Shown here: positions 23,751-39,802 of the stretch, in pieces
How positions within the stretch are numbered: the stretch's first letter is position 1
Layout: each line of letters begins with the position of its first letter
From: a virus
Length of the DNA stretch: 55,105 nt
Strand: one strand, 5' to 3'
Virus genome (UHGV): UHGV-0308106
Position numbers and translations under genes: made by a program
Notes under the pieces: model-generated
Told to the model about the DNA's origin: nothing
The model's input: the letters and a program-made list of their open reading frames with translations, nothing else
The model's database searches: none

Positions 23751-24372
23751 CGTCACCGAAATAATGGATGCGCTGGAGCGCTACAGCGAAATCATCACCC
23801 CCTGGGCGACTAAGGTTGCTGAGAGCTTCACCGCCGACATTGCGCGCCAGAATGAAAAGCAGTGGCGTCAGCACAGCCGGAACATCAGCGCAGAGCTGCG
23901 CAACATGGTTGACCGCGCCCCGGTAGGCCAGGTGATGAAATCCATCGTTGCCGAGCAAATTAAGTACATTAAATCGCTGCCTCTTGAGGCCGCCGATCGG
24001 GTGTATGACATTCAGAACAAAGCCATCGAGGCTGTTGTGACTGGTGGCCGCGCTGAGCCATTCGCGAAAGAGATAGCTGCGTCCGGTGACGTGTCACGCT
24101 CGCGAGCGAACCTTATCGCCCGTACCGAGCTTGGACGCGCAACCGGCGCGCTCGATCAGGCGCGTGCGCTGTCAATCGGCTCGAATGGTTATATCTGGCG
24201 TACAGCCGAAGATGGCGACGTCCGGCATTCTCATCGGGAGATGGAAGGTAAGTTTGTCGAATGGGGCCGACCTCCAACGCTTGACGGTATGACCGGTCAC
24301 GCTGGTGAGCTGCCGAACTGCCGCTGTTACAAAGAAATCGTCTTCCCCAACCCTCATTCTTATCTCGCCTGA
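23599..24372 (+). CDS. head morphogenesis protein (Mu F-like)
   Basis: C-terminal region with RTELGRA and GELPNCRCY; start ambiguous (23599 overlaps portal; alternative ATG 23764). Confidence 0.65.
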   Translation: MPKTKRRQASANLATNRQSRQAEIRYRTSLRQIARAVGDIVNGRYDGSNDSVTEIMDALERYSEIITPWATKVAESFTADIARQNEKQWRQHSRNISAELRNMVDRAPVGQVMKSIVAEQIKYIKSLPLEAADRVYDIQNKAIEAVVTGGRAEPFAKEIAASGDVSRSRANLIARTELGRATGALDQARALSIGSNGYIWRTAEDGDVRHSHREMEGKFVEWGRPPTLDGMTGHAGELPNCRCYKEIVFPNPHSYLA

Positions 24373-24386
24373 ATCGCAGGTAAACC

Positions 24387-25619
24387 ATGAAATATTTTTT
24401 CAATACCCGGCTGGGGGAAACCCGCTATCAGCTGGCTGACGGCTCGCTGTTGTGTAAAGACGTGCCGATAGGTCGAACGGGTAAGCAGCTCTACGGCGCT
24501 GCCGATCTGCCAAACCTCAAACCCGACAAGCTCGGTGAGATAGTCGTAACGCGTTCTCCTGAGCAGGTATTCCATCCGGCCACGCTCGCCTCATTCGAAG
24601 GGATGAGCATCACGATCCTGCATCCTGAAGATGAAAACGGGAATGTGCGGCTGGTAAATCCCGAGAACTGGAAAGAGCTTGCGGTCGGGCATTTTCAGAA
24701 CGTTCGGCGCGGGACTGGTGACCAGTCTGATTTGATGCTGGCAGACCTTATCGTCAAAGACGAAAGCGCCATTCAGCTTATCGAAGATGGTCTGCGCGAA
24801 GTGTCGTGCGGCTATGACGCGGAGTACGAGCAGACCGAGCCAGGTAAAGCCGAGCAGGTCGATATTACCGGAAACCATGTGGCTCTTGTCCCTAAAGGCA
24901 GAGCCGGAAATCGTTGTGCAATTGGAGACAGAGACACAATGGCAAATCAAAAGAAAAGCTGGTGGACCCGCATGCGCACGGCCATCAAAACGGGTGACGC
25001 TGACACCATGAACGAACTGCTGGACTCTGCGCCAGCGGCGGTAACGGGTGACGAAGGGGATCTGCCGAGCGGCGTTAACCTCAACATTAACCTTTCACCG
25101 CAGCAACCATTGCCGGACAAAAAGCCGGAAATGGGCGGAGATCCAACCGGCGACGGCGAGGACGATATCAAAACCTTGCTCAAAGCCCTGCTGGCTAAGC
25201 TCGAAGGAACTGCGACGGGCGATAACGACAATAAGCCTGACGAAAAAGACAAAAAAGATCCGACCGGCGACGGCGAGGACGACGAAGAGGAAACCACGAT
25301 TACCGGTGACTCTGCCTATCGTGCCGAGGTTATCGTCCCGGGTATCGATCTGAGCCGTAAGGTGAAACCGACCGCGTTCAAACGTGATGTGCTGGCTGCC
25401 GCTGACAAAACACTGGTTCGCCAGGTTGTCGGTGATGCGGATATCCGCAAATTGCCCAAGCAATCGGTAGATATGGCGTTTAACGCCGTGTCAGAGATTG
25501 CCAAAGGGCGAAACACCCGCAGCACCACGGGCGATGCACAACGTCCAAATATGGGCATGACCAGCATCGCTTCCCTGAACAAACAAAACGCCGACTTCTG
25601 GTCTAACCGCAAAGGATAA
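24387..25619 (+). CDS. scaffold/protease-like head protein (DUF2213-like)
   Basis: 410-aa ORF; acidic repeats DPTGDGEDD x2; C-terminus TTGDA...NADFWSNRKG. Confidence 0.5.
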   Translation: MKYFFNTRLGETRYQLADGSLLCKDVPIGRTGKQLYGAADLPNLKPDKLGEIVVTRSPEQVFHPATLASFEGMSITILHPEDENGNVRLVNPENWKELAVGHFQNVRRGTGDQSDLMLADLIVKDESAIQLIEDGLREVSCGYDAEYEQTEPGKAEQVDITGNHVALVPKGRAGNRCAIGDRDTMANQKKSWWTRMRTAIKTGDADTMNELLDSAPAAVTGDEGDLPSGVNLNINLSPQQPLPDKKPEMGGDPTGDGEDDIKTLLKALLAKLEGTATGDNDNKPDEKDKKDPTGDGEDDEEETTITGDSAYRAEVIVPGIDLSRKVKPTAFKRDVLAAADKTLVRQVVGDADIRKLPKQSVDMAFNAVSEIAKGRNTRSTTGDAQRPNMGMTSIASLNKQNADFWSNRKG

Positions 25620-25833
25620 TCCAATGACTGCATATCTGTACCTTATGCAACTAATATCTATTAATCAGTGCGTTATCGTTCGGAATCATACTGCGTTACT
25701 GGCCTGAACCATAAAAATGACACTCCGAACATGTGCGGATTTATTCGCCGGATTTCGCTTTGATTCGGTACGTGAGGGACTAGAGCGAGAATCATGCGCC
25801 GTTTGCATTACATGGTAGCCAGAGAGGTGTTGA

Positions 25834-27063
25834 ATGATTGTTAGGCCACTAACTAACGTCGAAGTGAAAAGCGCGAAGGCACAGGGCAAGGATTTCAGTT
25901 TGCACGATGGTTTCGGTTTGTTGCTTTACATCACAAGCCGGGGCGGTAAGTCATGGCGTTTTCGGTATGTACACCCGGTAACGAAGAAGAGACAAACCTA
26001 TACCATTGGAAGATACCCGGAGTTTACTTTGTCCGAAGCGAGGGAGGAACGTTCGAAACTGCGCCGTATGGTAGCGCGGGGGATAGATCCGAACGAAGTC
26101 AAAAAAGATACCAGGAATGAACAGCGTAAAATGTACGCGCAGTCATTTCAGGCCGTTGCCGATGAATGGCTAAAAATCAAGATTAAAGAAGGTGCGAGAA
26201 GCAACACGCTTGAATCGCACAATGTGACGTTGAAGCATCTTTCCACGATTTTTAGGCATACCACAGTACATAAAATAAACGCAGCCGATACTATTCAGGC
26301 TTTTAAACCTTTCAGGGAAAGGCCATCAACGCTTACGAAAATGGTTATTACCATCAACGCCATAATGGATTATGCGGTAAATATTGGGGTTATTGAGCAC
26401 AACCCACTATCGAAAATTGGTAAAGCATTCCCGGCTGAAAAAAACGAACCAAGAGCGACTTTACAGAAAGAGCGGTTGCCAGAATTTTTAAGCGCATGGA
26501 ACGAGTTGAGCTTATGGGAGCCATCAAAGCTGGCATTATTATTTCAGATCATTACGATGGTCCGACCTTCGGAAGCTGGCGGCGCTCTCTGGAATGAGAT
26601 TGATTTTGATAATTCAATCTGGCAAATCCCTGCAAGCCGGATGAAAGGAAAGCGCCCCCACGTAGTCCCATTATCGAGCCAGGCTATAAACGTGCTTAAA
26701 GAGGCCGAAAAGTGGAAGCGCTGCGATTATGTTTTCCCCTCATGGCGAAAAGAAAATAAGCCGATCTCACGATGTGCGACTCAGGCCGGAATACACAAAA
26801 CGTCGTTTAAAGGAATGATTGTTCCTCATGGGTTCAGGGCGTTGGCATCTACAGTTTTAAATGACGAGGGGTTCAACCCTGATGTGATTGAGGCTGCACT
26901 CGCTCACAAAAGCGCCGATGCGATTCGAAATGTTTATAACCGTAGCGACTATCTGGAAAAACGCCGGGTTTTAATGCAATGGTGGGGGGACTTTATCGAG
27001 GCCGCAGAGCGTGGAGAGATACTGGAGACCAGCGGCGATAAGGGCTTAAGGCTGGTTGTGTAG
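25834..27063 (+). CDS. int: tyrosine integrase (P4-type) of nested element
   Basis: 409-aa ORF; N-terminal arm-binding-like GKSWRFRYV; catalytic domain (HGFRALAST, AALAHKSADAIRNVYNR). Confidence 0.85.
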   Translation: MIVRPLTNVEVKSAKAQGKDFSLHDGFGLLLYITSRGGKSWRFRYVHPVTKKRQTYTIGRYPEFTLSEAREERSKLRRMVARGIDPNEVKKDTRNEQRKMYAQSFQAVADEWLKIKIKEGARSNTLESHNVTLKHLSTIFRHTTVHKINAADTIQAFKPFRERPSTLTKMVITINAIMDYAVNIGVIEHNPLSKIGKAFPAEKNEPRATLQKERLPEFLSAWNELSLWEPSKLALLFQIITMVRPSEAGGALWNEIDFDNSIWQIPASRMKGKRPHVVPLSSQAINVLKEAEKWKRCDYVFPSWRKENKPISRCATQAGIHKTSFKGMIVPHGFRALASTVLNDEGFNPDVIEAALAHKSADAIRNVYNRSDYLEKRRVLMQWWGDFIEAAERGEILETSGDKGLRLVV

Positions 27064-27104
27064 GGCATATCCATTTTTGGATAATTATGATTTCAAACGG
27101 GAAT

Positions 27105-27129
27105 AGCTGGCTTTAAGCCAGCTTTTTTT
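27105..27129 (+). terminator. intrinsic terminator after integrase
   Basis: agctggc-tttaa-gccagct hairpin followed by tttttt. Confidence 0.55.
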
Positions 27130-27206
27130 ATGCCCAAAGCTAACCGGAATGCGTTTTTTTTTATTCAAATCATATATAATCATATCGAATATATACGGAG
27201 GTTTTT

Positions 27207-27419
27207 ATGTCTATAAGTGGCGGTGATATTCTGCTAAAAGGTGAAGTGAAAGCGCGTTTACGTTATCGCTCAGACTCGTCATTCTACGAGTTTCTAAAAG
27301 ACGAGAAAAACGGCTTTCCAATGCCTTTTAAAGTCGGTGGGCGTAACTGCTGGTATGAAGATGAAGTAGATGCCTGGATAAGTAAACAAAGCGAGAAGCG
27401 CGGGATCTGCACATCATGA
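27207..27419 (+). CDS. AlpA-family transcriptional regulator
   Basis: 70-aa ORF; GGAGG SD; short HTH protein (FPMPFKVGGRNCWYEDEVDAWI) adjacent to integrase. Confidence 0.65.
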   Translation: MSISGGDILLKGEVKARLRYRSDSSFYEFLKDEKNGFPMPFKVGGRNCWYEDEVDAWISKQSEKRGICTS

Positions 27420-27558
27420 ATGTTTGCAGATTTGGGAAAGAGGGCTTGCTAACGGCTATCCGGGCAAGCCCTTTTTATTGTCAGTGGTGGGGATCTGTAA
27501 CTTACGGCCACCAGCGCCGGTAATCACCTTCTGGCTGGTGGCTTCACTGGCATGGCTA

Positions 27559-27918
27559 TTACGCTGCCGCATCATCTGAATTGAATTCAATGTGAATTCG
27601 GTCATAAGGCAGCACGATTTTTTCGCCGTCTTTGTCCAGAACGCCGCCGTTAAGCAGTGACTGAACATCGTTATAAACACCGCGAAAATCACGGTTAACA
27701 ATGCGTGATAGTTCGCGGATTGATACGGCTTGCGCTCCCTCCATCGCTTTGATGATCTGCCAGCGGTTAGGGGCAAGCATAGTTTTAGCCAGTTGTTCTA
27801 CAGTGGGAAAAATCAGTTCGGAACCGATGAAATCCCCGTTCATTGCGCGGGAGGCGTCGGACATTGCCACCCGGAAAGCATCATCAACGGTCATTACTCT
27901 GACGGTCAGCACTCGCAT
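27559..27918 (-). CDS. winged-HTH protein (antitoxin/regulator-like)
   Basis: 119-aa ORF, GGAGG SD, 4-bp gap after upstream 93-aa gene; HTH-like AVSIRELSRIVNRDFRGVYNDV. Confidence 0.5.
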   Translation of the reverse strand: MRVLTVRVMTVDDAFRVAMSDASRAMNGDFIGSELIFPTVEQLAKTMLAPNRWQIIKAMEGAQAVSIRELSRIVNRDFRGVYNDVQSLLNGGVLDKDGEKIVLPYDRIHIEFNSDDAAA

Positions 27919-27922
27919 GGTA

Positions 27923-28204
27923 TTACCTCCTCAACAGGTTTATGTCAGCCTGAAAGCTGGCGATCAGGTTCTCAATGGTGGTGAATGTCACCGGATATTC
28001 CCGATCATGGATGTGTTTGTGGTCGCCTTTGCCACGTTCGTTGTCGTAACGCATGACGCACTCGCCATCTACGATGTAGGCCAGACTGTACTTGTATTGG
28101 TGCTGGCTACCTAAAATTGCCGGGTCTACTTCCAGAATGCGGATCGAGGCGAAAGCGTTATCAGCTATCTGGATACGGCGGTTCATCAACTCAACAGCGG
28201 GCAT
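27923..28204 (-). CDS. small protein (toxin-like partner, family not recognised)
   Basis: 93-aa ORF, AAGGAG SD, operator palindromes immediately upstream. Confidence 0.45.
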   Translation of the reverse strand: MPAVELMNRRIQIADNAFASIRILEVDPAILGSQHQYKYSLAYIVDGECVMRYDNERGKGDHKHIHDREYPVTFTTIENLIASFQADINLLRR

Positions 28205-28220
28205 TGGCTTATCTCCTTGT

Positions 28221-28270
28221 TGATGTAAATAATAACATCACAAACGAATGATGTAAATGATTACATCATT
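28221..28270. promoter_or_regulatory. inverted-repeat operators upstream of two-gene cassette
   Basis: tgatgt-aaataata-acatca (28221-28240) and aatgatgtaa-atga-ttacatcatt (28247-28270). Confidence 0.45.
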
Positions 28271-28412
28271 GCGGGTAAGTTACCGATGGCATGAACGGTT
28301 CGCTGCTGGTGGCTCTCGATCTCCTGAAAGCTCAGGATATTGCCGGGCATGATTTTAATCGGCGGACTTTTCGGCCGATTGAATACGGGCAGTTCGCTCC
28401 CTGTGTATCGGC

Positions 28413-28552
28413 TTCGTTTCTGGATGATTCGCGTTTCGTTTCTGGTGAATTCGCATTCGCAATTTGTCCGCGAAGCCTTATCAGGCCTGATTTGAGCGGT
28501 GCTCTCTCTTTGCGAATTCGCAGTTCCATTTCGCACTTTGATTCGCAGTTTT
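28413..28552. repeat. cluster of palindromic GAATTCGC/GATTCGC motifs
   Basis: Tandem 20-mers ttcgtttctggatgattcgc (28413-28432) and ttcgtttctggtgaattcgc (28435-28454); further gcgaattcgca and gattcgca copies to 28552; overlapping ORFs look non-coding. Confidence 0.4.
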
Positions 28553-28713
28553 CAAATGTTCCCATTCCGGGGACACGGACGATTAGACAGGTGTTACAAA
28601 CGTTGGTGGTGAAATATCTTCTTGCGCTGGCGGGCACGGTGTGGTTATGATTATTTCGCACCTCACAAAACGGGTGCCGGGCGTGAGAACCCGGATAAGG
28701 TCAAAGGCGACAA

Positions 28714-28737
28714 CAGACGCCTATCGCGTCTTTTTTT
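28714..28737 (+). terminator. intrinsic terminator in leader upstream of icd-like gene
   Basis: agacgc-ctatc-gcgtct stem followed by tttttttt. Confidence 0.4.
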
Positions 28738-28931
28738 TGTCGCAATGTCAGTACCCCCATATGTAGCGGCGCAGATCCGCGCACAGAATCAATGGTGGCT
28801 CTGGCAGGGCAGCTTTCGGGCTGGCCGGTTCCCTTTGACGCCGGTATTCTCACCCCTGTCAGTGTCACCACCCTTTAGAGCGTGAGAACTCAGGTGGTGG
28901 CTCCTTAAATTAGTCAAAGGAGATCATCATC

Positions 28932-29129
28932 ATGATGACTATCCCTACCCTCGCTCAAACAAAATTCACCTGGCGCTTTCTCGCGCTGAATCGCCACGAT
29001 AAAAAAGCCAAACCTTGCCGTCTGTCCGTTGAGGCTGCGACCGAACGCGAAGCCCGCCGCATCCTTGCGCCGCACTTTATTTTGTCTCTGGCCGCACGTC
29101 TGCCAGTGCCGGAGGTGCGTCATGTTTAA
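28932..29129 (+). CDS. Icd-like small protein (P4 family)
   Basis: 65-aa; KFTWRFLALNRHD...RLSVEAATEREARRILAPHFILSLAARLP resembles Icd/Ash proteins as recalled. Confidence 0.45.
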   Translation: MMTIPTLAQTKFTWRFLALNRHDKKAKPCRLSVEAATEREARRILAPHFILSLAARLPVPEVRHV

Positions 29130-30000
29130 CCTCCAGACACTGACAGCTAAAGCCCGTGAGCTGCGCGGCAACGTCGTTAAAGCGGCGAGCACAAAGGGAA
29201 GTCGCACCATGACTCCTGTCTATGACCGTGACGAGCAGCGCAAGCTACGCGAGCGCATCCAGCAGACACAGCCCGATTGGGTGTTGCTCTGGTGGGATAT
29301 TGCGACCGTAACCGGCTGGCGTACCAGCGACGTTTGCAACCTGCGCTATTCCTGCGTCAATTGGGAAACGGGGCAGGCGACAATTATCGTTGCCAAGCAG
29401 ACCAAAGCCGCCGAAGCGCGGGCAACCCGCAAAGGTATTGAAATTGTGCGCCAGCAGCGCAAGGACGCCGCGCGGCTCGCCGCTGACCATATCGCCTACA
29501 TGAAGTGGGATAGTATCGGTTGTGACGAACTGGCCGCCGATATGAACGACGAGGAACAGGCGATTGTGTTCGGGCTGGTGGCAAAGGCTGACGTCAAGCA
29601 CGACACCAAACAGTTACCGCCCGGCATTATCAAGCGGCTGCGTGACCGTCAGGATCGGAATCTGGTGGAGGACGACCTGGTATTTTCACGCTCTCAAATC
29701 GAAAGTAACCGTTGTCAACGTCTGGAAGGTAGCGTTACTCGCCAAACCATCTGGCGCAAACTTCATGGCGTCATGGCGTGGTTTACCCGTTTCATTAACG
29801 CTAAATTGCGCCTGAGCGCGTACTCAAGCCGAAAAATAGCAGCCTTTAATCTTATGTCCGCAGGTGGCGAACAGGGATTATTGGTGGCTTCTGAAATGCT
29901 GGGGCATAGCAACCCGGCGATAACTCGCACTTACCTTCAATTAGGCAGCAAAGCCGCCGCTATCCAGTCCCGTTTAGCAATGGAGGTGTGCCATGCGTAA
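29122..30000 (+). CDS. tyrosine recombinase-like protein (catalytic domain only)
   Basis: 292-aa from ATG 29122 (GGAGG SD); WDIATVTGWRTSDVCNL and C-terminal LGHSNPAITRTYLQ; no N-terminal core-binding domain. Confidence 0.55.
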   Translation: MFNLQTLTAKARELRGNVVKAASTKGSRTMTPVYDRDEQRKLRERIQQTQPDWVLLWWDIATVTGWRTSDVCNLRYSCVNWETGQATIIVAKQTKAAEARATRKGIEIVRQQRKDAARLAADHIAYMKWDSIGCDELAADMNDEEQAIVFGLVAKADVKHDTKQLPPGIIKRLRDRQDRNLVEDDLVFSRSQIESNRCQRLEGSVTRQTIWRKLHGVMAWFTRFINAKLRLSAYSSRKIAAFNLMSAGGEQGLLVASEMLGHSNPAITRTYLQLGSKAAAIQSRLAMEVCHA

Positions 30001-30172
30001 TCTCTTTCATATCACTGGCTACGCCGTCAATAAACGCGGCCTGACAGTCGGTTTTAGCTATCTCATCGACGCCGAGGACGCCATGCAGGCAAAAGTTAAT
30101 GCCATTGCTGAGGCGAAAGACGATGAACTCACCCACGTATCTATTGCCCGTATTCTGGAGGTGGCAGCATGA
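29993..30172 (+). CDS. hypothetical small protein
   Basis: 59-aa ORF not in track; GGAGG SD; coupled to neighbours. Confidence 0.35.
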   Translation: MRNLFHITGYAVNKRGLTVGFSYLIDAEDAMQAKVNAIAEAKDDELTHVSIARILEVAA

Positions 30173-30381
30173 GCAAAGTATCCCTGGCCGATTCAACCTG
30201 CCGTATCCAACAGGCGCAGGAAGTCCTGTCTCTCTGGCTTGAGGCGACGAATAAAAACGATAGCGGCACGGCTAAATTAATCGGCGCAATCATTTCCCTT
30301 CTGGATGGTATCCCCGAATTGATGGATTCAGTAGAGGATGAATTGGCTGGCATGGACTTAAAAGCGATGGATAAAGCATGA
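30169..30381 (+). CDS. hypothetical protein
   Basis: 70-aa ORF, ATGA coupling on both sides. Confidence 0.4.
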   Translation: MSKVSLADSTCRIQQAQEVLSLWLEATNKNDSGTAKLIGAIISLLDGIPELMDSVEDELAGMDLKAMDKA

Positions 30382-31004
30382 GCAACGTAGAGAAATTCAC
30401 ACCGGGAAATGCCGACTTATTACACGCCGAAGCCACACCGCACGGCGTAAACATCATGACCCGCAATGATGCCGGGATGTATGAGCATGTAGCCATTATC
30501 ACCTATGAGAGCGCTGTAAGCCGTCTGGATGCGGGAGAGTACGACGATACGCCAGATATCGGCTACGCCATTCATTTTGCCGTTGCTGATGGCGGGGCGC
30601 GTGGCTGGTTCGACTTTACCGCGCAGCATGAAGTAACCATGTGGCGCTGGCTGATTGCTGCGACGTTCGTTTCTGAGATGAAGCGCGAAAACGGCACAAC
30701 CTCCGTCACGGAGGCTGACGGCACAACATCGCAGGTGGCGATTTACTCCAATGGTAATGCGGGCATGGTGATTTACCCGTTTGCTGAACGGCTGGCGATG
30801 GCGAACAACATCGAGGGCGCAATGATTGAGCGATACGGCGTCGAACAGGGTACGGAAAAAGCCATTGTGTTTTATCAGGCCATGCTGGATACGGAGCGCG
30901 GCGAGCTTACCCCGTTCGGACGTGAAACGCTGGCAGAGCTACACGATCACTTCATTGCTGATCTGGATGAAAACGGCTGGCCTGAAATGCCAGCGGCGCA
31001 CTGA
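30378..31004 (+). CDS. hypothetical protein
   Basis: 208-aa ORF upstream of primase in same operon. Confidence 0.45.
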   Translation: MSNVEKFTPGNADLLHAEATPHGVNIMTRNDAGMYEHVAIITYESAVSRLDAGEYDDTPDIGYAIHFAVADGGARGWFDFTAQHEVTMWRWLIAATFVSEMKRENGTTSVTEADGTTSQVAIYSNGNAGMVIYPFAERLAMANNIEGAMIERYGVEQGTEKAIVFYQAMLDTERGELTPFGRETLAELHDHFIADLDENGWPEMPAAH

Positions 31005-31016
31005 GGGAGCGACACA

Positions 31017-33797
31017 ATGCGTAATATCGACCTTATCCGCGAAGTGACCAGCGCCGCAGCAGGGCGCTGGCCTTATGTGCTGGCTGGGTTGTCTATCGAC
31101 GTGCCTGATTCATCGCGCCGCCATTCTCCATGCCCTGCATGTGGTGGAAAAGACCGTTTCAGATTCGACGACAACGGGCGCGGTAGCTTTATCTGCAACC
31201 AGTGTGGCGCTGGTGACGGGCTGGATTTAATCAAGCGGGTTAACAACTGCGACACTACGGAGGCGGCACAGCTTGCCGCTGACGTGCTGGGTATTGATTA
31301 CCGGGCAGCGCAATCCGACCCGGTGGCAGCGAGCCATATAAGGGAGCAACTGGAAGCTGACCGCCAGCAGCGTGAGCAGGAGCGCCAGAAACAGGCAGCA
31401 GGGGACGCAGAGCAGCGAAGGGCTACGTTTGCCCGTCTGTATGCCGGAATGCGCCAGAGTGCCACACAGGGCGAATCTGATTACCTGCAATCAAAAGGGC
31501 TGACCGGGTTTAACTATCCGGTTATGCCTGATGGTTCGTTATTGCTGGAGCTGGTGGACGAATCCGGCGCAGTGGCAGCAGCGCAAACCATTACACCGCA
31601 GGGAGAGAAGCGACTCCTGACAGGTTCAGCAAAGCGCGGGGCATATCACGCCGTAAACGCGCCAGAATCGCCGCAGAGCGTTTTAATTGCCGAGGGGCTG
31701 GCGACGGCCCTTTCAGTTCACCTGATGCGCCCGGACGCGCTGGCAGTGGCAGCAATTGACGCGGGCAACCTGCTACCCGTTGCCGAAGTGATGCGCCGGA
31801 AGTACCCACAGGCACAAATCATCATTGCCGCAGATAACGACCAGATGGGCGAAAGTGACGGAATTAAAGGAGTGAAAGTTAACACTGGCAAGGAGGCCGC
31901 AGAGAAAGCCGCGAAAGCCGTTTCTGGCTGGGTTTCCATGCCACCAGTGGACTATAAAGCGGACTGGAACGACTACCACCAGCAATACGGCCTCGAAGCG
32001 GCCACAGCAGCATTTAACGACTCAATGTATCAACCGGAGGGTAAGAAAGTGGGTGCGACACTGACAGCTATCGACGGCGGCAAGAAAAAACTTGGTATCG
32101 ACGACGATCTGAAACCGCGAGTAGAGAGCCGTGCGGATGGCATTCACTGGATCACCCCGAAAGTGGACAAAGACACAGGAGAAATTATCAATACCGAGGC
32201 GTGGCTATGCTCTCCGCTGGAGATTGCTGGTGCGGGGAGTGATAACGCCAGACAGCGCTTTCTGATCCTGCGTTGGGACGTCCCCGGCAACCGGGGGCAA
32301 GTTACCCGTGCGCTTCCATGGGAGGACATTGGCGACCGTGAGGGATGGCGCACGCTGAAAAACGGCGGTGTCAGTGTGACAACCAAACCATCGTTGCGGG
32401 CAATTCTGGCCGACTGGCTGCAGCGAACTGGTAGCGGCAAGGAATGGCAGATCAGCCACACCACAGGCTGGCACAACGGGGCGTACATCATGCCGGATGG
32501 TGATGTTATTGGTGAGCCAGAGATACCGCTGTTATTCAGTGGTCGGAGTGCGGCGGCTGGTGGCTATACCGTCAGTGGAACGCCGGAAAGCTGGCGTGAT
32601 TCGGTGGCGCGTCTTGCGCTGGGAAACCCGTCAATGATGCTGGGCGTTGCTGCTGCGCTTTCTGCGCCGCTGATCGGGCTTGTTGGCGCTGACGGGTTCG
32701 GCGTGCATCTTTTCGAGCAGTCCAGCGCAGGGAAGACAACCACCGCCAACATTGCCAGCAGTTTATACGGTGAACCGGATGCCTTGCGCCTTACCTGGTA
32801 CGGTACAGCGCTGGGTATCGCCAACGAAGCGGAAGCGCATAACGACAGCCTGTTACCGCTGGATGAAGTGGGGCAGGGCAGTAGCGCCAAAGACGTTGCT
32901 ACGTCTGCTTACACGCTGTTTAACGGTGCCGGAAAGCTACAGGGGGCCAAGGAGGGCGGCAACCGTGAGTTAAAGCGCTGGCGCACCGTGGCGATCAGTA
33001 CCGGGGAAATGGACATTGAGACGTTTCTTTCTGCTGGTGGGCTGAAAGTTAAGGCCGGGCAACTGGTGCGATTGCTTAATTTACCGATGGAGAAATCAGT
33101 AACGCACCATGAGTACCAGAACGGGAAGCAACACGCCGACGCACTCAAAGAGGCTTACCAGACGAACCACGGAGCCGCAGGCCGTGAATGGATTAAATGG
33201 CTTGCAGGCCACCAGCAGGAGGCAAAACAAGCTGTCAGGGCGGCGCAAGAGCGCTGGCGCAGTCTTATCCCCGCTGATTATGGCGAACAGGTTCATCGTG
33301 TCGGTGAGCGGTTCGCCATTCTGGAGGCGGCGCTGGTGCTGGGGATGCCTGTCACTGGTTGGGGGGAGCAGGAAAGTCGGGACGCTATCCAGCATGGCTT
33401 TAATGCTTGGGTAAAAGAGTTTGGCACGGGGAACCGTGAGCATAAGCAGATCATCGAGCAGGCAGAGGCGTTTCTTAATGCCTACGGCATGAGCCGTTTC
33501 GCGCCGTTCCCGTATAGCCCGGCTGACATGCCGATCCGGGATTTAGCCGGATACCGTCAGAAAGGTGAGCATGACGAAAGCCCCGTAGTGTTCTACACCT
33601 TTCCGGCTGCGTTCGAAAAGGAGATAGCGCAGGGCTTTAATGCGAAACAGTTTGCCCGTGTGCTGGCCGGGGCTGGGGTACTGAAACCGCCAGCCAGCGG
33701 AAGGGGATATCAGCGTAAATCCCCGCGAATTGATGGACGCCAGATAAACGTTTATGTGCTCCAGCTACGACCCGACGAGATAGAGGGCGAAGAATAA
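31017..33797 (+). CDS. primase-helicase (P4 alpha-like)
   Basis: 926-aa; zinc ribbon CPACGG...CNQCG; TOPRIM-like AEGLATALSVH and IIAADNDQ; P-loop-like SSAGKTT. Confidence 0.9.
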   Translation: MRNIDLIREVTSAAAGRWPYVLAGLSIDVPDSSRRHSPCPACGGKDRFRFDDNGRGSFICNQCGAGDGLDLIKRVNNCDTTEAAQLAADVLGIDYRAAQSDPVAASHIREQLEADRQQREQERQKQAAGDAEQRRATFARLYAGMRQSATQGESDYLQSKGLTGFNYPVMPDGSLLLELVDESGAVAAAQTITPQGEKRLLTGSAKRGAYHAVNAPESPQSVLIAEGLATALSVHLMRPDALAVAAIDAGNLLPVAEVMRRKYPQAQIIIAADNDQMGESDGIKGVKVNTGKEAAEKAAKAVSGWVSMPPVDYKADWNDYHQQYGLEAATAAFNDSMYQPEGKKVGATLTAIDGGKKKLGIDDDLKPRVESRADGIHWITPKVDKDTGEIINTEAWLCSPLEIAGAGSDNARQRFLILRWDVPGNRGQVTRALPWEDIGDREGWRTLKNGGVSVTTKPSLRAILADWLQRTGSGKEWQISHTTGWHNGAYIMPDGDVIGEPEIPLLFSGRSAAAGGYTVSGTPESWRDSVARLALGNPSMMLGVAAALSAPLIGLVGADGFGVHLFEQSSAGKTTTANIASSLYGEPDALRLTWYGTALGIANEAEAHNDSLLPLDEVGQGSSAKDVATSAYTLFNGAGKLQGAKEGGNRELKRWRTVAISTGEMDIETFLSAGGLKVKAGQLVRLLNLPMEKSVTHHEYQNGKQHADALKEAYQTNHGAAGREWIKWLAGHQQEAKQAVRAAQERWRSLIPADYGEQVHRVGERFAILEAALVLGMPVTGWGEQESRDAIQHGFNAWVKEFGTGNREHKQIIEQAEAFLNAYGMSRFAPFPYSPADMPIRDLAGYRQKGEHDESPVVFYTFPAAFEKEIAQGFNAKQFARVLAGAGVLKPPASGRGYQRKSPRIDGRQINVYVLQLRPDEIEGEE

Positions 33798-33811
33798 AAC
33801 ACACATACGAG

Positions 33812-34104
33812 ATGTTTTTTTGTTGGTTCAGTTGGTTCAGTAACTATTTAATTAAGATAAGTATATGTATTTAATATATTTCTATACCCATAAGTGAACC
33901 AACACTGAACCAACAAATACCCATTTTGAACCAACAAATGCCGCTATTGAACCAACGCCCTTTTCTGGCTGGCCTGTAAATCTTTCCCACTGAACCAACA
34001 CGAAAATAGCGTTTGTTGGTTCAAAACAAGGCTTTGTTGGTTCACTCCTCAAGAAATAATCCTTACAAAACAACAATCTTTACAAATTGAACCAACTGAA
34101 CCAA
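33812..34104. repeat. iteron array / candidate origin of replication
   Basis: 12 copies of GAACCAAC in both orientations (e.g. 33812, 33821, 33886, 33897, 33918, 33939, 33982, 34005, 34026, 34079, 34088, 34097) flanking an AT-rich tract 33830-33880. Confidence 0.65.
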
Positions 34105-34397
34105 CTGAACCAACATGTTTTTGTTTATCTATAGAGTTTTTTCGGAGAGTAATTACGAATTTGGAGGGGCATCGCCTAAGCGACAGTATGCGGAAACGGC
34201 AACTTTGCGGAGCGGAAAAGAAAAAGCCCGCGCTGGAGAGGCGAGGGCTTTTGTTAACCATGTTTATGCAATCACACAATGGTGGATCACCGTCATAGTA
34301 CCACGTCGATTTATCATTTCAATGTACGCAATGATGTTTACTAATATTGCAATTTATGCAATGATCAGAATTTAAACAACGCAAAAGGTTATGAACA

Positions 34398-34961
34398 ATG
34401 AAACAGATAACCAATGTTAATCTGGAAAGTGATAACGCTGGTGGTACAGTCGAGGTGACTTACTCCGATGATACGTTCGAAAGGCTGACCTGTTCGCTGC
34501 CTGTGGCTCTCGTCATTGCGAACCTTGCAACGACGCTTAAGCAGGAACGTGCAACACGCATTGCAACCGGCGACCGCCTGCGCCGGATGTATACCCGCGA
34601 TAGTGACATGATTACCCGCAGCGGCAGCGGCGCTTCTACGACCTCCACCGCGCCAACGTCAATGGACGCTGAATTTATGCGCCTGGTACGCGCTGTAGCA
34701 CCAAAGTATGACAACGCCCTTCCTGATACCGATCCTCGCCTTGTTGCGCTTGATGTGCTGCGTTACGCACCCGCTGAGGCATTCAGTGCGGTACACCCGA
34801 CCCCGCTATCAGAGATTCAGCTTGATCAGGCTATCGACGTTCTGGAACAGGTTGGCGACTACATGCGAGTTAACAACGTTTCACCGAAGATTCTCACCAC
34901 AGGCGACGCCATTCGCAGCATTAACACCGACAACGCCAGTTTCTGGCATCGCACGAAGTAA
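34398..34961 (+). CDS. hypothetical protein with scaffold-like C-terminal motif
   Basis: 187-aa; C-terminus TTGDAIRSINTDNASFWHRTK resembles helper 24387-25619 C-terminus. Confidence 0.5.
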   Translation: MKQITNVNLESDNAGGTVEVTYSDDTFERLTCSLPVALVIANLATTLKQERATRIATGDRLRRMYTRDSDMITRSGSGASTTSTAPTSMDAEFMRLVRAVAPKYDNALPDTDPRLVALDVLRYAPAEAFSAVHPTPLSEIQLDQAIDVLEQVGDYMRVNNVSPKILTTGDAIRSINTDNASFWHRTK

Positions 34962-34967
34962 GGAGCA

Positions 34968-35162
34968 ATGAGCATGGCTATTTATGACCCGAAATTAGCA
35001 GCAGGAAACCCGCAAAGCGCCGGGCGTAAACTCTTTGGCCGTGAACAGGCCGAGCAATTGCGGATGCGTAACAACTTCAACAACGAATGCCGCAATCTGG
35101 AAAAAGTCAACGAAGCGAATGCAAAGTTCTGGAGTGAACAGGATGAAAAAGCCAAACGTTAA
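34968..35162 (+). CDS. hypothetical small protein
   Basis: 64-aa; contains NAKFW near C-terminus. Confidence 0.4.
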   Translation: MSMAIYDPKLAAGNPQSAGRKLFGREQAEQLRMRNNFNNECRNLEKVNEANAKFWSEQDEKAKR

Positions 35163-35310
35163 GCCGGTATTACTCTCTGGCGACCAGTTCGCCGCAATCT
35201 GCAAGATCCAGGAGCGCGAACGCCAGCGCTCCGATATTGGCGTAGCGCCGTCTGTCCATCAAATTGCCCGTGGGCTGGTGGCGAAAGCGCTGGCATCAAT
35301 TCAGGAATAA
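35143..35310 (+). CDS. hypothetical small protein
   Basis: 55-aa from ATG 35143 with GGAG SD. Confidence 0.3.
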   Translation: MKKPNVKPVLLSGDQFAAICKIQERERQRSDIGVAPSVHQIARGLVAKALASIQE

Positions 35311-35315
35311 CGACT

Positions 35316-36383
35316 ATGTCATATAACTGGATGCGCCATTTCGAGCTACAGCTCATCGATGAGAATGGCAAAGGAATTAGCCTTAGTGATTTCAAAGTTA
35401 CCTTTGATATAGAGCGTAACGATAACAAATGGCCAGCTGTTGCGACGGTCAAGATCTACAACCTTTCACCAACTACTCAGAACCGTATTATGCAACGTGA
35501 GTTTGCCAAAATTGTGTTGATAGCGGGGTATGATGGTCGTGCGCAGGATGTAAGGGCAAGTGATGTGGGGATTGCACGTGAAATATCAGCAAGCGAAGTG
35601 GGCCAGGCTAACGGCGCAAACTACGGAGTCATTTTCAGCGGTGATATCCGCTTCACTGTGACCGGAAAAGATAACCCTGTCGATTCATGGGTACAGGTGC
35701 AGGCTTGTGACTCTGTGGAGGCGTTTACCAGCGCATTTATCAACACCACTATCAGCAAAGGCTACACCACAGAAGATATTTATGTTGAGCTTATGAAAAG
35801 GCTGGAACCTTACGGCATTTCTCGCGGTATTGTTCCTGAATTCCCGGCAACGGTATTTCCTCGCGGTCGAGCCCTCTTTGGCTATGTCCATAACTATCTC
35901 GATGAAGTGGCCGCGCAGTGCAAAGCCACTTGGCAATTCAACTATGGAAAAGTCGATATTGTTCCCAGAGACAAGGCCACTCATGAAGCTGTGGTTCTCA
36001 ACGCTAATACCGGGCTTATCGGTATGCCTCAGCAGACCATCGGTGCGGGTGTGAATGTCAAATGCCTGATTAACTCACGGATTCACCTGAACGGGCTTAT
36101 CCAACTGGATCAGGCTTCGGTATATCGTAGCGCCTTATCTGCGGATCAAATTGCCCAAGCTGGTGGGCCAATTTCGGTGGAAAGCCAAAACGGAAACCTT
36201 GTCACTACTGGATTAACGCAGAGTCCGGCGAGCATTGCTACCGATGGTATCTATAAGGTTCGGTATATCAGTTACACGGGCGACACGCGCGGTCAAGCGT
36301 GGTATATGGATCTGGCGTGTGAGGCTCGCGGGAATTCTGATTTATTTTCAAGTTCATTTATGAATAAGCAGAGTGAAGAATGA
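35316..36383 (+). CDS. baseplate hub-like protein (paralog of 47472-48536)
   Basis: 355-aa; about 70 percent identical by eye to helper hub-like protein (MSYNWMRHFELQLID vs MSLNWMRHFELQLLD). Confidence 0.5.
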   Translation: MSYNWMRHFELQLIDENGKGISLSDFKVTFDIERNDNKWPAVATVKIYNLSPTTQNRIMQREFAKIVLIAGYDGRAQDVRASDVGIAREISASEVGQANGANYGVIFSGDIRFTVTGKDNPVDSWVQVQACDSVEAFTSAFINTTISKGYTTEDIYVELMKRLEPYGISRGIVPEFPATVFPRGRALFGYVHNYLDEVAAQCKATWQFNYGKVDIVPRDKATHEAVVLNANTGLIGMPQQTIGAGVNVKCLINSRIHLNGLIQLDQASVYRSALSADQIAQAGGPISVESQNGNLVTTGLTQSPASIATDGIYKVRYISYTGDTRGQAWYMDLACEARGNSDLFSSSFMNKQSEE

Positions 36384-36724
36384 AGAAGATTATTTTACTG
36401 ATTGGTTTATTGGGCGCATCTGGAAGTCATGCTGCGCAGGTTATTACCATGCAGTGCGGAAACTTTCGCTTTGAGATGATAGAAAACTCGATGGCGAGAA
36501 TTAATGGTGAGTATGTAACATCTCAGAAAATTACAGAGTTCGGACAGAACGGGGCAAAAGTAGAAATGACGCTTATGCCTGCCAGCGATGGGAATCTGTA
36601 TGGGTTTGAATACATCCATCCTGACGGTAGCAAAAAGCGCTGGCTGAATGTTGAGCTTATCCGCACCAATATGAATCAGGCGCGGATCATTGGCTCGTTT
36701 GATTGTAAGCGCGTGAAGGGGTAA
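36380..36724 (+). CDS. secreted small protein (paralog of 48549-48893)
   Basis: 114-aa; signal peptide MKKIILLIGLLGASGSHA; two Cys; shared C-terminal DCRKVK. Confidence 0.5.
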   Translation: MKKIILLIGLLGASGSHAAQVITMQCGNFRFEMIENSMARINGEYVTSQKITEFGQNGAKVEMTLMPASDGNLYGFEYIHPDGSKKRWLNVELIRTNMNQARIIGSFDCKRVKG

Positions 36725-36732
36725 GGGGAATC

Positions 36733-37395
36733 ATGCCATTCATTCGACCCGCAAATGAGCAGGATGTAACACAGCTTGTTCAGGACAATGCTAAAGCATC
36801 TGTAACCAATGCGTTACCTGGCATTATTCGTTCGTTCGATCCCGAAACTGTCACCTGCGATGTTGATATAGCCATTACGGCAAGAATGACGAAGGCTGGC
36901 ACAATGGGTGAAGATTTCCAGTATGAGTCCGTCCGCTATCCGATTCTTAACGATTTGCCTGTGGTTTTTCCGCGCGGGGGCGGAGTTACGCTTACTTTCC
37001 CGGTTAAAGATGGTGATGAATGCCTCATCGTATTCTCTTCGCGTTCGATTGATTTCTGGTGGCAGAACGGCGGTGTGCAGGAGCGAGCTGATGGGCGTAT
37101 TTTAGATCTGTCTGATGCGTTCGTTATTCCTGGCCCCCAATCACAGGTAAAGAAGATATCCAATATCAGTACCAACGCTGCGCAGCTGCGTACAGATGAT
37201 GGAGCGGCATTTGTAGAGGTGTCCGCTGGTGGAGCCATTACTATTACCAGCTCTCAAATCACCCTTAACGGGCCCGTGCAGGTAAACGGAACGATCACTT
37301 CCACTGGCGACCAAACGGCCAACGGTATCAGCCAGATTAACCATACCCACGGCGGCGTACAATCAGGCGGCAGCAACACAGGAAAACCACAATGA
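36733..37395 (+). CDS. baseplate spike protein gpV-like (paralog of 49430-50170)
   Basis: 220-aa; PGIIRSFDPETVTC, FPRGGG, C-terminal HTHGGVQSGG; about 65 percent identical to helper gpV. Confidence 0.7.
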   Translation: MPFIRPANEQDVTQLVQDNAKASVTNALPGIIRSFDPETVTCDVDIAITARMTKAGTMGEDFQYESVRYPILNDLPVVFPRGGGVTLTFPVKDGDECLIVFSSRSIDFWWQNGGVQERADGRILDLSDAFVIPGPQSQVKKISNISTNAAQLRTDDGAAFVEVSAGGAITITSSQITLNGPVQVNGTITSTGDQTANGISQINHTHGGVQSGGSNTGKPQ

Positions 37396-37571
37396 GCAAT
37401 ATTGAAAAACTGAAACCAGAAGAAAGCGGATCCAGCCAGAATGGTAAGGTTCGTACCTGGCTGGATGATATCAACGGGCAGCCGGAACCAGATGGTATTG
37501 GCAGCTTCGGTGAGAGTGCGATCTGCGAAGAATCACGCACAGCGGAAACCATGCGAAATAACGTAGGGTGA
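37392..37571 (+). CDS. hypothetical small protein
   Basis: 59-aa ORF, ATGA overlap with gpV-like stop. Confidence 0.3.
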   Translation: MSNIEKLKPEESGSSQNGKVRTWLDDINGQPEPDGIGSFGESAICEESRTAETMRNNVG

Positions 37572-37599
37572 CGGTCAGATGACGTGATCTGTAACTTTA

Positions 37600-37647
37600 A
37601 GTAGCGGTGCAGGGGCAGAACTCAGCACGCTACTTTTATTTTCTTTG
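37600..37647 (+). terminator. intrinsic terminator upstream of orphan small-terminase paralog
   Basis: agtagcggtgc...gcacgctact stem with one bulge, followed by tttattttctttg. Confidence 0.5.
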
Positions 37648-37661
37648 TCAAAAGGTGAACA

Positions 37662-38135
37662 ATGGCGGCATTACCAACAATGGCTAAGGTTATGATTATT
37701 CAATCATTAGCTTGCTACGAACCCCCTTCCAGAATCGTTGAGCTTGTAAAACAAGATTTTGGCATCGTCGTTACCCGGCAGCAGATATCGGCCTACAACC
37801 CTGAAAATACAATGGCAAAAAATCTTAGCCAAAAATGGGTAGAACTCTTTAATCACACTCGCGCCCGCTTCCAGAGTGAAATATCCGAGATCCCTATCGC
37901 TAACAAAGCGTACCGGCTGCGTATGCTCGATCGCATGGCTAACCGTGCAGAGGCAATCAAGAATTACGCATTAACAGCGCAGCTTATTGAACAGGCCGCG
38001 AAAGAGTGCGGGGACGCTTACACCAACAAATTAAAGGTTGAAACAACGGGTAAAGATGGTGGTCCGATCAGAACGGAAACAACGAACTTAACCGCCGAAG
38101 AAGCCGGGGAGGCATACCGCAAATTTATGGGATAA
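37662..38135 (+). CDS. small terminase paralog (orphan)
   Basis: 157-aa; same length as 19876-20349 product, C-terminal half nearly identical; no large terminase or portal follows. Confidence 0.5.
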   Translation: MAALPTMAKVMIIQSLACYEPPSRIVELVKQDFGIVVTRQQISAYNPENTMAKNLSQKWVELFNHTRARFQSEISEIPIANKAYRLRMLDRMANRAEAIKNYALTAQLIEQAAKECGDAYTNKLKVETTGKDGGPIRTETTNLTAEEAGEAYRKFMG

Positions 38136-38366
38136 CCACCAGCGCCGTGACACGTCACACGCAAAAATAGCACCGCCCATTAATGGGCTGGTGGCACAGC
38201 TTGCATATTGAAATTCCCTGTAAATCTTACAGATCTGGTATTGAGTAACTTACCCCATTCAGCGCCATACATCACAGAGCAGCCTATGGACTACACACAA
38301 AATCAGGCTGCAAATAAATCCTTATATTTCAGTTGATTAAATAATAGCCTTGCATTCCTGTACCGG

Positions 38367-38849
38367 ATGCCTGTTGGCATTGCCGGGGCTATCTCTCGCC
38401 CGCAGGACTTAACCGTCGAACCGGTGATCCTTAAATCCGCTAACGCCTTCGCTGCCTATGGTCTGGCTGGCAAATATGACGCTGACGGCTTTTTCGTGCC
38501 GCTGGCGGACGGTGACACCGCCGACAAGGTGAAGGGGATCTACGTTCGTCCGTATCCGACCACATCGCAGCCAGACATGGTTCGCCAGGTGGGGACGGAT
38601 AAGAACTTCCCGGGTGACGCCATGAAGCGTGGCTACATGACCGTTAATCTCGGTTCTGATTTTGATGCCAGCACCATCAAAAAAGGCGACCCGGTATACG
38701 TTGTCGTCTCCACTGATGAATCCATAAAAGTGCCGCTGGGCGGCTTCATGTCCACGTCCGTCAGTGGCAAAAACGTGGCGCTGACCAACGCCGAATTCAC
38801 AGGGGCCGGTGACGCTAACGGCAATGTAGAAATCTCCTGGAAGATTTAA
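38367..38849 (+). CDS. head protein (decoration or scaffold-like), hypothetical
   Basis: 160-aa ORF directly upstream of major capsid gene. Confidence 0.4.
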   Translation: MPVGIAGAISRPQDLTVEPVILKSANAFAAYGLAGKYDADGFFVPLADGDTADKVKGIYVRPYPTTSQPDMVRQVGTDKNFPGDAMKRGYMTVNLGSDFDASTIKKGDPVYVVVSTDESIKVPLGGFMSTSVSGKNVALTNAEFTGAGDANGNVEISWKI

Positions 38850-38860
38850 GGAACAGACAA

Positions 38861-39802
38861 ATGATTACTTTTGATCAGGCAACCGTAGATAGCTCCGGTG
38901 CCTTTCTCATCGGGGAGCTGGAGCGACTCGACCAGACGCTGAACCTGCCTCTGGTGGGGTACACCTGGACCCGAGATATTCAACTGCGTGAAGACGTGTC
39001 TATCGCAGATGACATTTCCAGCTGGACGAATACCAGCTTCGCCGCTGCGGGTACTGGTGCAAATCCGAATGGTAAAAACTGGGTAGGCAAAGACTCCACC
39101 GCTATTGCTGGCGTGAACGTGGATATCAGCAAAGACGGCAATCCACTGAACCTCTGGGGTATGGAACTGGGCTGGACCGTTGTAGAGCTGGCAGCTGCTC
39201 AGCAGGTAGGCCGCCCGATTGATACCCAGAAGTACGACGGGATGCAGCTCAAATGGCAGATGGACAACGACGAGCAGGTTTACATCGGTGATGACGCACT
39301 CGGCCTGAAAGGTCTGGCAAACCTCGTCGGTGTGACGCTGAACAACGCGCCGAAGACCTGGGCGAACTCAACCAACGACGAGATCCTCGATAGCGTGAAC
39401 AGCATTCTGTCTAATGCCTGGGCAGCATCCGGTTATTCCATCGTGCCTTCTGATCTGCGCATTCCGCCAGAGCAGTATTCACTGCTGGCGAGCCGTAAGG
39501 TTTCCGAAGCGGGTAACCAGTCACTGCTGACCTATCTGGCTGTGAACACTATCGCTTTCCACCAGAACGGCGTTCCGCTTGAAATCAAAGCGGTCAAATG
39601 GCTGAAAGGGCGTGGGGTTGGCGGTAAAGACCGTATGATCGCCTACACCAACGACAAGAAATACGTGCGCTATCCGCTGGTGCCGTTGCAGAGCGTTCCT
39701 GTCCAGTATCGCGGTCTGTATCAGATTGCGACCTACTACGGCAAGCTCGGTGCGGTTGAGCCAGTGTACAAAGAAACCCTGTCCTACGTGGACGGTATCT
39801 GA
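38861..39802 (+). CDS. major capsid protein
   Basis: 313-aa ORF in head module; size, position and composition typical of coat proteins. Confidence 0.55.
   Translation: MITFDQATVDSSGAFLIGELERLDQTLNLPLVGYTWTRDIQLREDVSIADDISSWTNTSFAAAGTGANPNGKNWVGKDSTAIAGVNVDISKDGNPLNLWGMELGWTVVELAAAQQVGRPIDTQKYDGMQLKWQMDNDEQVYIGDDALGLKGLANLVGVTLNNAPKTWANSTNDEILDSVNSILSNAWAASGYSIVPSDLRIPPEQYSLLASRKVSEAGNQSLLTYLAVNTIAFHQNGVPLEIKAVKWLKGRGVGGKDRMIAYTNDKKYVRYPLVPLQSVPVQYRGLYQIATYYGKLGAVEPVYKETLSYVDGI

Follow-up and report, generated by a model that had tools for sequence, protein, structure and literature searches.

A phage satellite embedded in a SEN34-like prophage encodes two proteins that share a C-terminal tail motif with the presumed helper's DUF2213 protease/scaffold

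The window analysed here, the whole stretch of 55,105 nucleotides of the virus genome UHGV-0308106, is a temperate myovirus prophage of the SEN34/Omnitron type, and within its head genes lies an embedded satellite of ~12.7 kb (25643-38350, plus strand). Two neighbouring satellite genes, encoding a protein of 187 residues (34398-34961, plus strand) and a small protein of 62 or 64 residues (34968-35162, plus strand; probable start at 34974), carry a short motif that recurs at the C-terminus of the DUF2213 prohead protease/scaffold of the presumed helper (24387-25619, plus strand; 410 residues). We tentatively propose that the satellite proteins are mimics of the scaffold tail, similar in kind to CpmB and Rcm of staphylococcal islands, that dock in helper procapsids and probably redirect capsid size. 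Binding, competition with the scaffold and the change in size are steps that we infer.

The helper DUF2213 protein ends ...STTGDAQRPNMGMTSIASLNKQNADFWSNRKG, the 187-residue protein ends ...LTTGDAIRSINTDNASFWHRTK and the open reading frame (ORF) of 64 codons contains ...VNEANAKFWSEQDEKAKR, exactly as an earlier sequence-only reading of this DNA had written them. Two boxes can be discerned in the helper tail: box 1, TTGDAQR (residues 380-386; 25524-25544, plus strand; read from the sequence), and box 2, IASLNKQNADFW (residues 394-405; 25566-25601, plus strand), the latter a predicted terminal helix that is followed by SNRKG. The tail of the 187-residue protein (34896-34946, plus strand) has TTGDAIR (167-173) and INTDNASFW (175-183), followed by HRTK, and the small protein has a box-2-like motif, VNEANAKFW (35106-35132, plus strand), that precedes a charged end, SEQDEKAKR.

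BLASTP aligns the 187-residue protein with the DUF2213 protein at E=0.003, with 13 identities in 30 positions and a 9-residue gap exactly over the helper linker between the boxes, and the 64-residue protein at E=0.018. Across the window's 1053 six-frame ORFs there are three occurrences of the pattern N..NA.FW, where shuffling predicts 0.003, and all three lie in the DUF2213, 187-residue and 62/64-residue proteins. TTGDA occurs twice (0.057 expected), only in the DUF2213 and the 187-residue protein, and in both it lies a few residues before the second box. A hidden Markov model (HMM) of 60 helper tails ranks the 64-codon ORF (E=0.013) and the 187-codon ORF (E=0.029) next after DUF2213 itself, with noise beginning at 0.19, and an HMM of the tails of the 187-residue family matches the 64-codon ORF at E=4.6e-4. 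When both models were run on 5082 ORFs from 15 related loci, matches fell only in these three families, the Klebsiella DUF2213 tail scoring E=0.0014. By these counts the pattern as a whole is not due to chance. The sequence-only reading had put forward this shared C-terminal motif, and its claim is borne out in that the motif is non-random (three occurrences for 0.003 expected) and conserved in all three families.

The same reading had named a profile-profile comparison as a check, and in this comparison the last 20 columns align (hhalign, E=0.0025, probability 11.7%). Since hhalign aligns these last 20 columns alone, the shared piece is, as judged from sequence, a short linear motif of two boxes and not a homologous domain. 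Homology of the 187-residue protein to the scaffold half of DUF2213 at the level of a domain was considered and rejected: the hhalign match is restricted to the tail, and no DUF2213 protein was among the results when 1.84 billion proteins were searched with a profile. Indeed, neither the 187-residue nor the 64-residue protein has a match to PF09979, and neither belongs to the DUF2213 family.

The helper tail is itself conserved. In 29 relatives that are 77-96% identical to the DUF2213 protein, box 1 has an invariant D383 and near-invariant T381, G382, A384 and R386, and in box 2 N398, N401, F404 and W405 are invariant and I394 nearly so. The linker between the boxes (387-393) varies freely in these 29 relatives and is exactly the segment that is absent from the 187-residue protein. 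This distribution suggests that the tail is under purifying selection beside a variable linker. A 56%-identical Klebsiella type of DUF2213 protein, with the end ...KTVDSLQ[9]TIAGMNQAAQEFWSKRG, keeps I394, N398, F404 and W405, and a third, Serratia-type protein keeps the tail motif as well (...INELNRKFWNERK). The motif is also kept in the DUF2213 protein of Acinetobacter phage AbTJ, which ends ...EMNKRNREYWANKGN / MNKRNREYWANKGN; in a tblastn comparison only the N-terminal half of the AbTJ protein can be aligned with the helper protein, the remaining C-terminal half cannot. The more distant DUF2213 phages phiEcoM-GJ1, KpV52 and BcepNY3 have different ends, and distant phages with the same capsid Pfam family lack the FW motif. 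In an AlphaFold2 model of the helper DUF2213 protein, residues 394-406 form a helix after a low-confidence segment that lacks secondary structure; the confidence of the whole model is low (predicted local distance difference test, pLDDT, of 43), and we used its secondary structure alone.

The 187-residue protein belongs to a family specific to such satellites, of which a profile search yielded 15 cluster representatives among the 1.84 billion proteins. Its N-terminus is variable, its helical core (91-158) is strongly conserved and W183 is nearly invariant. Divergent members end INADNDKFWNKGNQ, INEANRKFWNRGKQS and MNALNAEYWKDRDWKG, and even in the most divergent ones the tail always closes with ...[FYLA]W and then two to five residues, most of them basic. 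No match to the protein was found in Pfam, PHROG or NCBIfam. AlphaFold2 (pLDDT 68.8) predicts beta-strands within 4-32, a long helix at 34-69, a disordered segment at 65-90, a helical region at 91-158 and a terminal helix at 168-183 (tail pLDDT ~50), after which comes the basic HRTK. The protein is thus predicted to be predominantly alpha-helical with a terminal helix and a basic hook, as in remodellers of the CpmB/Rcm type, at low confidence for the tail. Among database entries, P0040 fuses a protein of this family with the small protein and P0169 seems to be part of a junction of this kind; DUF2213 and cement are fused in P0046 and P0048 (576 residues), and P0190 and P0266 (561-562 residues) look similar to these in length. 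Such fusions probably arose from frameshifts or errors in assembly, although read-through could also account for them.

The true start of the small protein is likely the ATG at 34974, giving 62 residues, since AAGGAG lies 8 nt upstream and RefSeq calls this start in a related locus (L001). Its homologues have the motifs LNESNAQFW, INQSNKDFW, INQANNEFW, VNKQVQDYW and VSQKQNDFW, which always conform to [ILV][NS]....[DKQE][FY]W and are followed by a charged end. Of the related satellites examined, only that of the divergent locus L010 lacks the gene; in the Klebsiella loci it is an uncalled ORF. Its stop is overlapped by a third small gene (35143-35310, plus strand), which encodes a protein of 55 residues, MKKPNVKPVLLSGDQ..., and is conserved in the satellite family (L001, L007, L012, L013, L014 and L015). 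The 55-residue protein has no match in Pfam or the other databases searched; by eye it shows a strand and two helices in a pattern like that of ribbon-helix-helix proteins.

Three classes can be told apart among the helper tails, and three that resemble them among the satellite tails. Helper tails read LNKQNADFW in class A, MNQAAQEFW or INAAAKELW in class B and INELNRKFW in class C, and tails of the 187-residue family read INTDNASFW in A, IGDAAKKAW or TNDAAAKFW in B and INEANRKFW in C. Against helper tails of the same class, those of the 187-residue family reach scores of 32-36 (A), 19-37 (B) and 36-51 (C), compared with 7-31 against the other classes, so that own-class scores are usually higher, with overlapping ranges for B. 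Among embedded pairs, those of E. coli and Apirhabdus combine class A with class A, and those of Klebsiella combine B with B. A clean co-variation of helper and satellite tails, as the Klebsiella and E. coli pairs had indicated, was downgraded after mismatches were met in Serratia, which are described below. The three classes are suggestive of tail copying or of co-evolution, with a matching that is not strict and comes from few independent lineages. Since the motif of the small protein scores well against all three helper classes, it suggests that this protein acts as a generic version of the tail.

In the mechanism that we tentatively favour, the helper DUF2213 protein would be a prohead protease fused to an internal scaffold, and its last ~30 residues would be a peptide that docks to the inside of the assembling shell. 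This docking peptide would consist of box 1 (T-x-G/V-D-A/S), a variable linker and a short helix, [ILM]N..N..[FY]W, with basic residues after it, and the satellite would carry copies of it on two unrelated helical proteins of 187 and ~62 residues. Upon late expression of the helper, the satellite proteins would take the docking sites of the scaffold on the helper capsid protein and enter procapsids in competition with the scaffold, and their own oligomerising parts would most likely impose a tighter curvature that leads to small capsids. Such capsids would be large enough for the satellite genome of 12.7 kb but too small for the helper genome of ~41 kb, and the satellite's homologue of the small terminase (TerS) would then direct packaging. 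The presumed binding partner of the tails is the helper major capsid protein (38861-39802, plus strand; PF09950, E=6.7e-82; phrog_264, major head protein). AlphaFold2 predicts helices after disordered or low-confidence segments for the terminal segments of both the DUF2213 and the 187-residue protein, and the genes for the 187-residue and small proteins are placed with the packaging and late genes of the satellite.

It is also conceivable, but in our view unlikely, that the tail works as a portable label addressing proteins to the capsid interior, with a class-specific copy on the 187-residue protein and a generic copy on the ~60-residue protein, by which one satellite lineage exploits several helper lineages. 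Short portable C-terminal addresses to the interior of HK97-fold shells are known from the HK97 protease tail and from the cargo-loading peptides of encapsulins, whose sequences differ from the tail described here.

Mimicry of a scaffold tail has direct precedents in staphylococcal islands. CpmB of SaPI1, a protein of 72 residues, and the scaffold of phage 80alpha have in common a C-terminal helix-and-hook and bind the capsid protein at one and the same site; dimers of CpmB constrain the shell to T=4, and CpmA is a second required protein. As in that pair, the satellite described here has a helical protein with only a C-terminal helix and a basic hook in common with the helper's internal scaffold and, as with cpmA and cpmB, two genes are encoded beside the satellite TerS. 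However, there is no sequence relation or detectable fold relation to the SaPI1 pair, and the helix here is [ILM]N..N..[FY]W with basic residues instead of RIIK. Unlike 80alpha, the helper is a temperate, Gram-negative myovirus, and its DUF2213 protease has the scaffold either fused to it or nested within it. Both satellite proteins carry the motif, whereas none is reported for CpmA. Competition by CpmB and the formation of small capsids are established for SaPI1, whereas the present system is known from sequence alone. Rcm of SaPIpT1028 is a larger multi-helical protein whose likeness to the phi7206 scaffold suggests competitive binding to the capsid protein; it is necessary and sufficient for size redirection, and its binding to the capsid protein has been demonstrated. 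The 187-residue protein is likewise multi-helical and larger than CpmB, but its sequence is unrelated to that of Rcm, and binding and size redirection would be expected here by analogy. P4 Sid and PLE TcaP are, like the proteins described here, encoded by satellites of Gram-negative bacteria, small capsids made from helper capsid protein being a feature of Sid and TcaP, but these form external cages and do not mimic an internal scaffold. No homology to CpmB, Rcm, Sid, TcaP or Ccm was found in sequence or fold, and the late-gene families of P4 (Sid, Psu and Delta) have no Pfam match among the satellite ORFs scanned. What the element has in common with P4-like satellites is limited to an integrase, an AlpA-like protein, a primase and an Icd-like gene (annotated in L001).

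The helper's place in this comparison conforms to what the sequence-only reading had supposed in calling its protein scaffold-like, as the PHROGs label (head maturation protease), the paper on Pa193 gp24 (putative scaffold) and the BcepNY3 record (scaffold nested in protease) treat the family as prohead protease plus scaffold. Its analogy with satellites also holds: the element is capsid-less, embedded in a helper and equipped with a TerS of its own, and CpmB and Rcm are precedents for the proposed role.

Several observations weigh against size redirection through a mimicked docking tail. Satellite mobilisation is possible without any change in capsid size. The pairwise scores are marginal when taken one by one (E between 0.003 and 0.03), the hhalign probability given above is low, and fold searches returned no match to any known scaffold or remodeller. 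The motif of the small protein does not lie at its extreme C-terminus, and a Serratia satellite with a class B tail resides inside a class A helper (L105) and inside class C helpers (L106, L107). The idea that the motif tracks the Pfam family of the capsid was rejected, as phiEcoM-GJ1 and KpV52 have PF09950 capsids and other tails. In the paper on Pa193, gp24 is a putative scaffold and its residues 286-326, which bind the interior of the five-fold vertex, are the sole mapped capsid contact in the family; this contact is internal and not in the tail. Unassigned helices of ~16 residues lie under the hexons of Pa193. Since a sequence search of the PDB with the DUF2213 protein gave no match, the gp24 fragment cannot be placed on that protein.

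Other roles for the tail must be weighed against this proposal. Perhaps it is a procapsid-targeting signal that loads satellite proteins as cargo, for example proteins that are injected with the DNA for establishment or counter-defence, while capsid size stays unchanged. The motif evidence applies equally to such cargo, the conserved central helical domain of the 187-residue protein (91-158) is unrelated to the scaffold and could have a function of its own, and the motif of the small protein is generic across helper classes. Yet Pfam, PHROG and fold searches found no similarity to known injected or anti-defence proteins, a prohead protease normally degrades internal proteins, and two proteins with the same address beside packaging and late genes suit a role in assembly at least as well, so that we consider cargo loading an unlikely explanation. 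Competition for docking sites would follow from the shared motif even if the tails were pure decoys that block or titrate the scaffold or protease and lower helper assembly with no distinct small capsid, and satellites commonly carry several interference functions (as noted in the SaPI1 paper). Pure interference nonetheless appears improbable for a satellite that needs the same capsids, having no capsid gene of its own, and whose two genes are conserved core genes placed with structural and packaging genes.

A different partner for the motif is also rather improbable. The DUF2213 protease could recognise or cleave the motif, or the portal or MuF protein could bind it, and the satellite proteins would then be substrates or regulators of the protease, or portal binders. 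The capsid contact mapped elsewhere in Pa193 gp24 and the different tails of distant phages with the same capsid Pfam family would fit such a role, but nothing here points to the portal, and the tail of the HK97 protease is typically a shell-docking element. The same is typical of the C-terminal tails of other scaffolds and prohead proteases (P22, phi29 and 80alpha in the papers cited). Finally, NCBI and UniRef name several members of the 187-residue family 'XRE family transcriptional regulator', which would make the likeness of the tails coincidental. The data argue against this, and we deem it very improbable: Pfam and NCBIfam find no HTH_3/XRE domain in the protein, and there is no match to a helix-turn-helix fold. 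The database label is thus unsupported and is corrected here.

Over its head-gene segments, the prophage shares 98.3% identity with Citrobacter phage Omnitron and 91.2% with Salmonella phage SEN34. The head module begins with the portal gene (22281-23750) and the MuF gene (23599-24372), and the DUF2213 gene lies between the MuF and cement genes, in the same order as in SEN34 and Omnitron. The DUF2213 protein matches PF09979 over residues 16-181 (E=8.9e-42) and phrog_1961 (E=4e-199), as well as phrog_12864 and phrog_530, for which the PHROGs label is head maturation protease. According to the BcepNY3 record, the scaffold gene 13' of that phage is nested in frame within the protease gene, with a common C-terminus. 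A similar arrangement could exist here, with Met185 as the start of a possible nested scaffold (24940-25619, plus strand) that would share the C-terminus of the DUF2213 protein; GGAG lies 11 nt 5' of the ATG at 24940 (window 24925-24942), and Met185 is invariant in our two alignments (A2 and A3).

The borders of the satellite were drawn by comparison with E. coli S1, an uninterrupted relative; in window coordinates, the left match stops at 25642 and the right match begins at 38351. The insertion point lies within the first codons of the gene for the cement (decoration) protein (38367-38849, plus strand; PF23982, PF22758). On its two sides (25620-25660 and 38330-38370) the insert has the copies of a direct repeat, GCATATCTGTACC / GCATTCCTGTACC, which is imperfect. 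At the empty site of E. coli S1 the cement gene encodes 167 residues, begins MTAYLYRMPVG and starts 5 nt past the DUF2213 stop; the insertion displaces its first seven codons, and the remaining ORF starts at an internal Met, without MTAYLYR. Among 80 close helper relatives in IMG/VR, at least 8 (possibly 9) share this junction, and several complete E. coli genomes have it too. Since no capsid gene was found among the genes of the 12.7-kb element and it is inserted within the helper, the element is a phage satellite embedded in its presumed helper. With SEN34 and Omnitron measuring 40.7-41.9 kb, the ratio of satellite to helper length is ~0.31. Such a ratio resembles those of P4 to P2 and of SaPI1 to 80alpha and is typical of size-redirecting satellites.

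From its start the insert encodes an integrase and an AlpA-like protein, a TumE-family toxin gene and its neighbour on the opposite strand, a second recombinase-like protein, a primase/DUF927 protein and iterons, after which come the genes for the 187-, 62/64- and 55-residue proteins. Diverged helper-like genes close the insert, namely a baseplate hub, a 114-residue protein, a spike and a DUF2280 TerS-like protein. The satellite TerS-like gene (37662-38135) is 64% identical to that of the helper (19876-20349), and the satellite hub (35316-36383) is 63% identical to the helper hub (47472-48536). These diverged copies of TerS, hub and spike imply satellite-specific packaging and an altered tail tip, as far as can be read from gene content. 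Twelve GAACCAAC iterons in both orientations lie between the primase and 187-residue genes (33822-34114), and GAACCAAC occurs 13 times in the window against 1.7 expected; the array is probably the replication origin of the satellite. The TumE-family gene (PF20126) and the neighbouring HVO_A0114-family gene (PF25212) occupy 27559-28204 on the minus strand and are probably a toxin-antitoxin pair or defence cargo. Besides the terminal integrase there is the second, shorter tyrosine-recombinase-like gene (~291 residues; 29029-30000), and such a gene lies mid-element in every satellite of the group (also in loci L003-L012 and L096-L107).

All members of the 187-residue family that were examined reside in satellites of the same build, in the order integrase, AlpA, Icd-like protein, second recombinase, DUF4222, primase, 187-residue gene and one or two small genes, followed by a variable late zone that mostly includes a TerS-like gene (DUF2280, Terminase_2 or DUF5681). 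In the late zone, tape measure, Dit, hub and spike genes occur in varying combinations, or there is a tail fibre with its chaperone. Examples are a 'peptidase M41 family' protein in E. coli ABWA45 (L001, 15480-16199), a tail fibre and chaperone in Serratia (L105, 10989-12010) and a tape measure with Dit, hub and spike in Salmonella (L007, 10910-12895). Whatever this late-gene cargo, the 187-residue and small genes are core genes of the satellite family, and the former keeps a constant position, 3' of the primase and origin and 5' of the small gene(s) and late genes. A scan of one genome per species gave three loci, and a scan of viral contigs returned only relatives of at least 95% identity. 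The satellites lie in the chromosome or inside helper late genes, at the cement start in E. coli, in the capsid gene in Klebsiella and Serratia and at the Baseplate_J start in Enterobacter. In the divergent locus L010 (15073-20569), the family member has 207 residues and a long helper-like tail, there is no small gene, and the satellite adjoins the head genes (portal, terminase, gpO and gpN) of a P2-like prophage.

In their siting these elements recall the helper-embedded phage-inducible chromosomal islands (HE-PICIs), satellites embedded in the late genes of lambda-like helpers (Tommasini, Mageeney & Williams 2023). Like HE-PICIs, the present element lies inside a helper late gene and is co-oriented with it, and it is arranged as integrase and AlpA, replication genes and a late zone with captured helper genes. 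Unlike HE-PICIs, whose published sites lie in cognates of lambda late genes, these satellites have SEN34-like myoviruses as helpers. The main text of the HE-PICI survey mentions neither DUF2213, nor cement genes, nor this group of myoviruses, and describes no scaffold mimic.

Mimicry of a helper's scaffold tail by a satellite is a kind of mechanism already known from staphylococcal islands. We found no description of the 187-residue family or its motif in the literature, nor of such a mimic for Gram-negative satellites or for scaffolds of the DUF2213 type. To our knowledge, only a handful of capsid-remodelling mechanisms are known, those of Sid, CpmAB, Ccm, TcaP and Rcm, and we know of scaffold-tail mimicry so far only in staphylococcal islands. 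If the proposal made here is true, the strategy would have arisen independently in enterobacterial satellites embedded in myovirus prophages, and the peptide by which the widespread DUF2213 protease/scaffold family docks would be defined. The motif [ILM]N..N..[FY]W near a C-terminus, encoded beside a satellite TerS, would then be a marker by which remodellers can be found and the helper that they exploit predicted. If instead the tail is an address label, these proteins would be the first internal-scaffold mimics in Gram-negative satellites and would form a two-key system that sets the range of helpers open to them.

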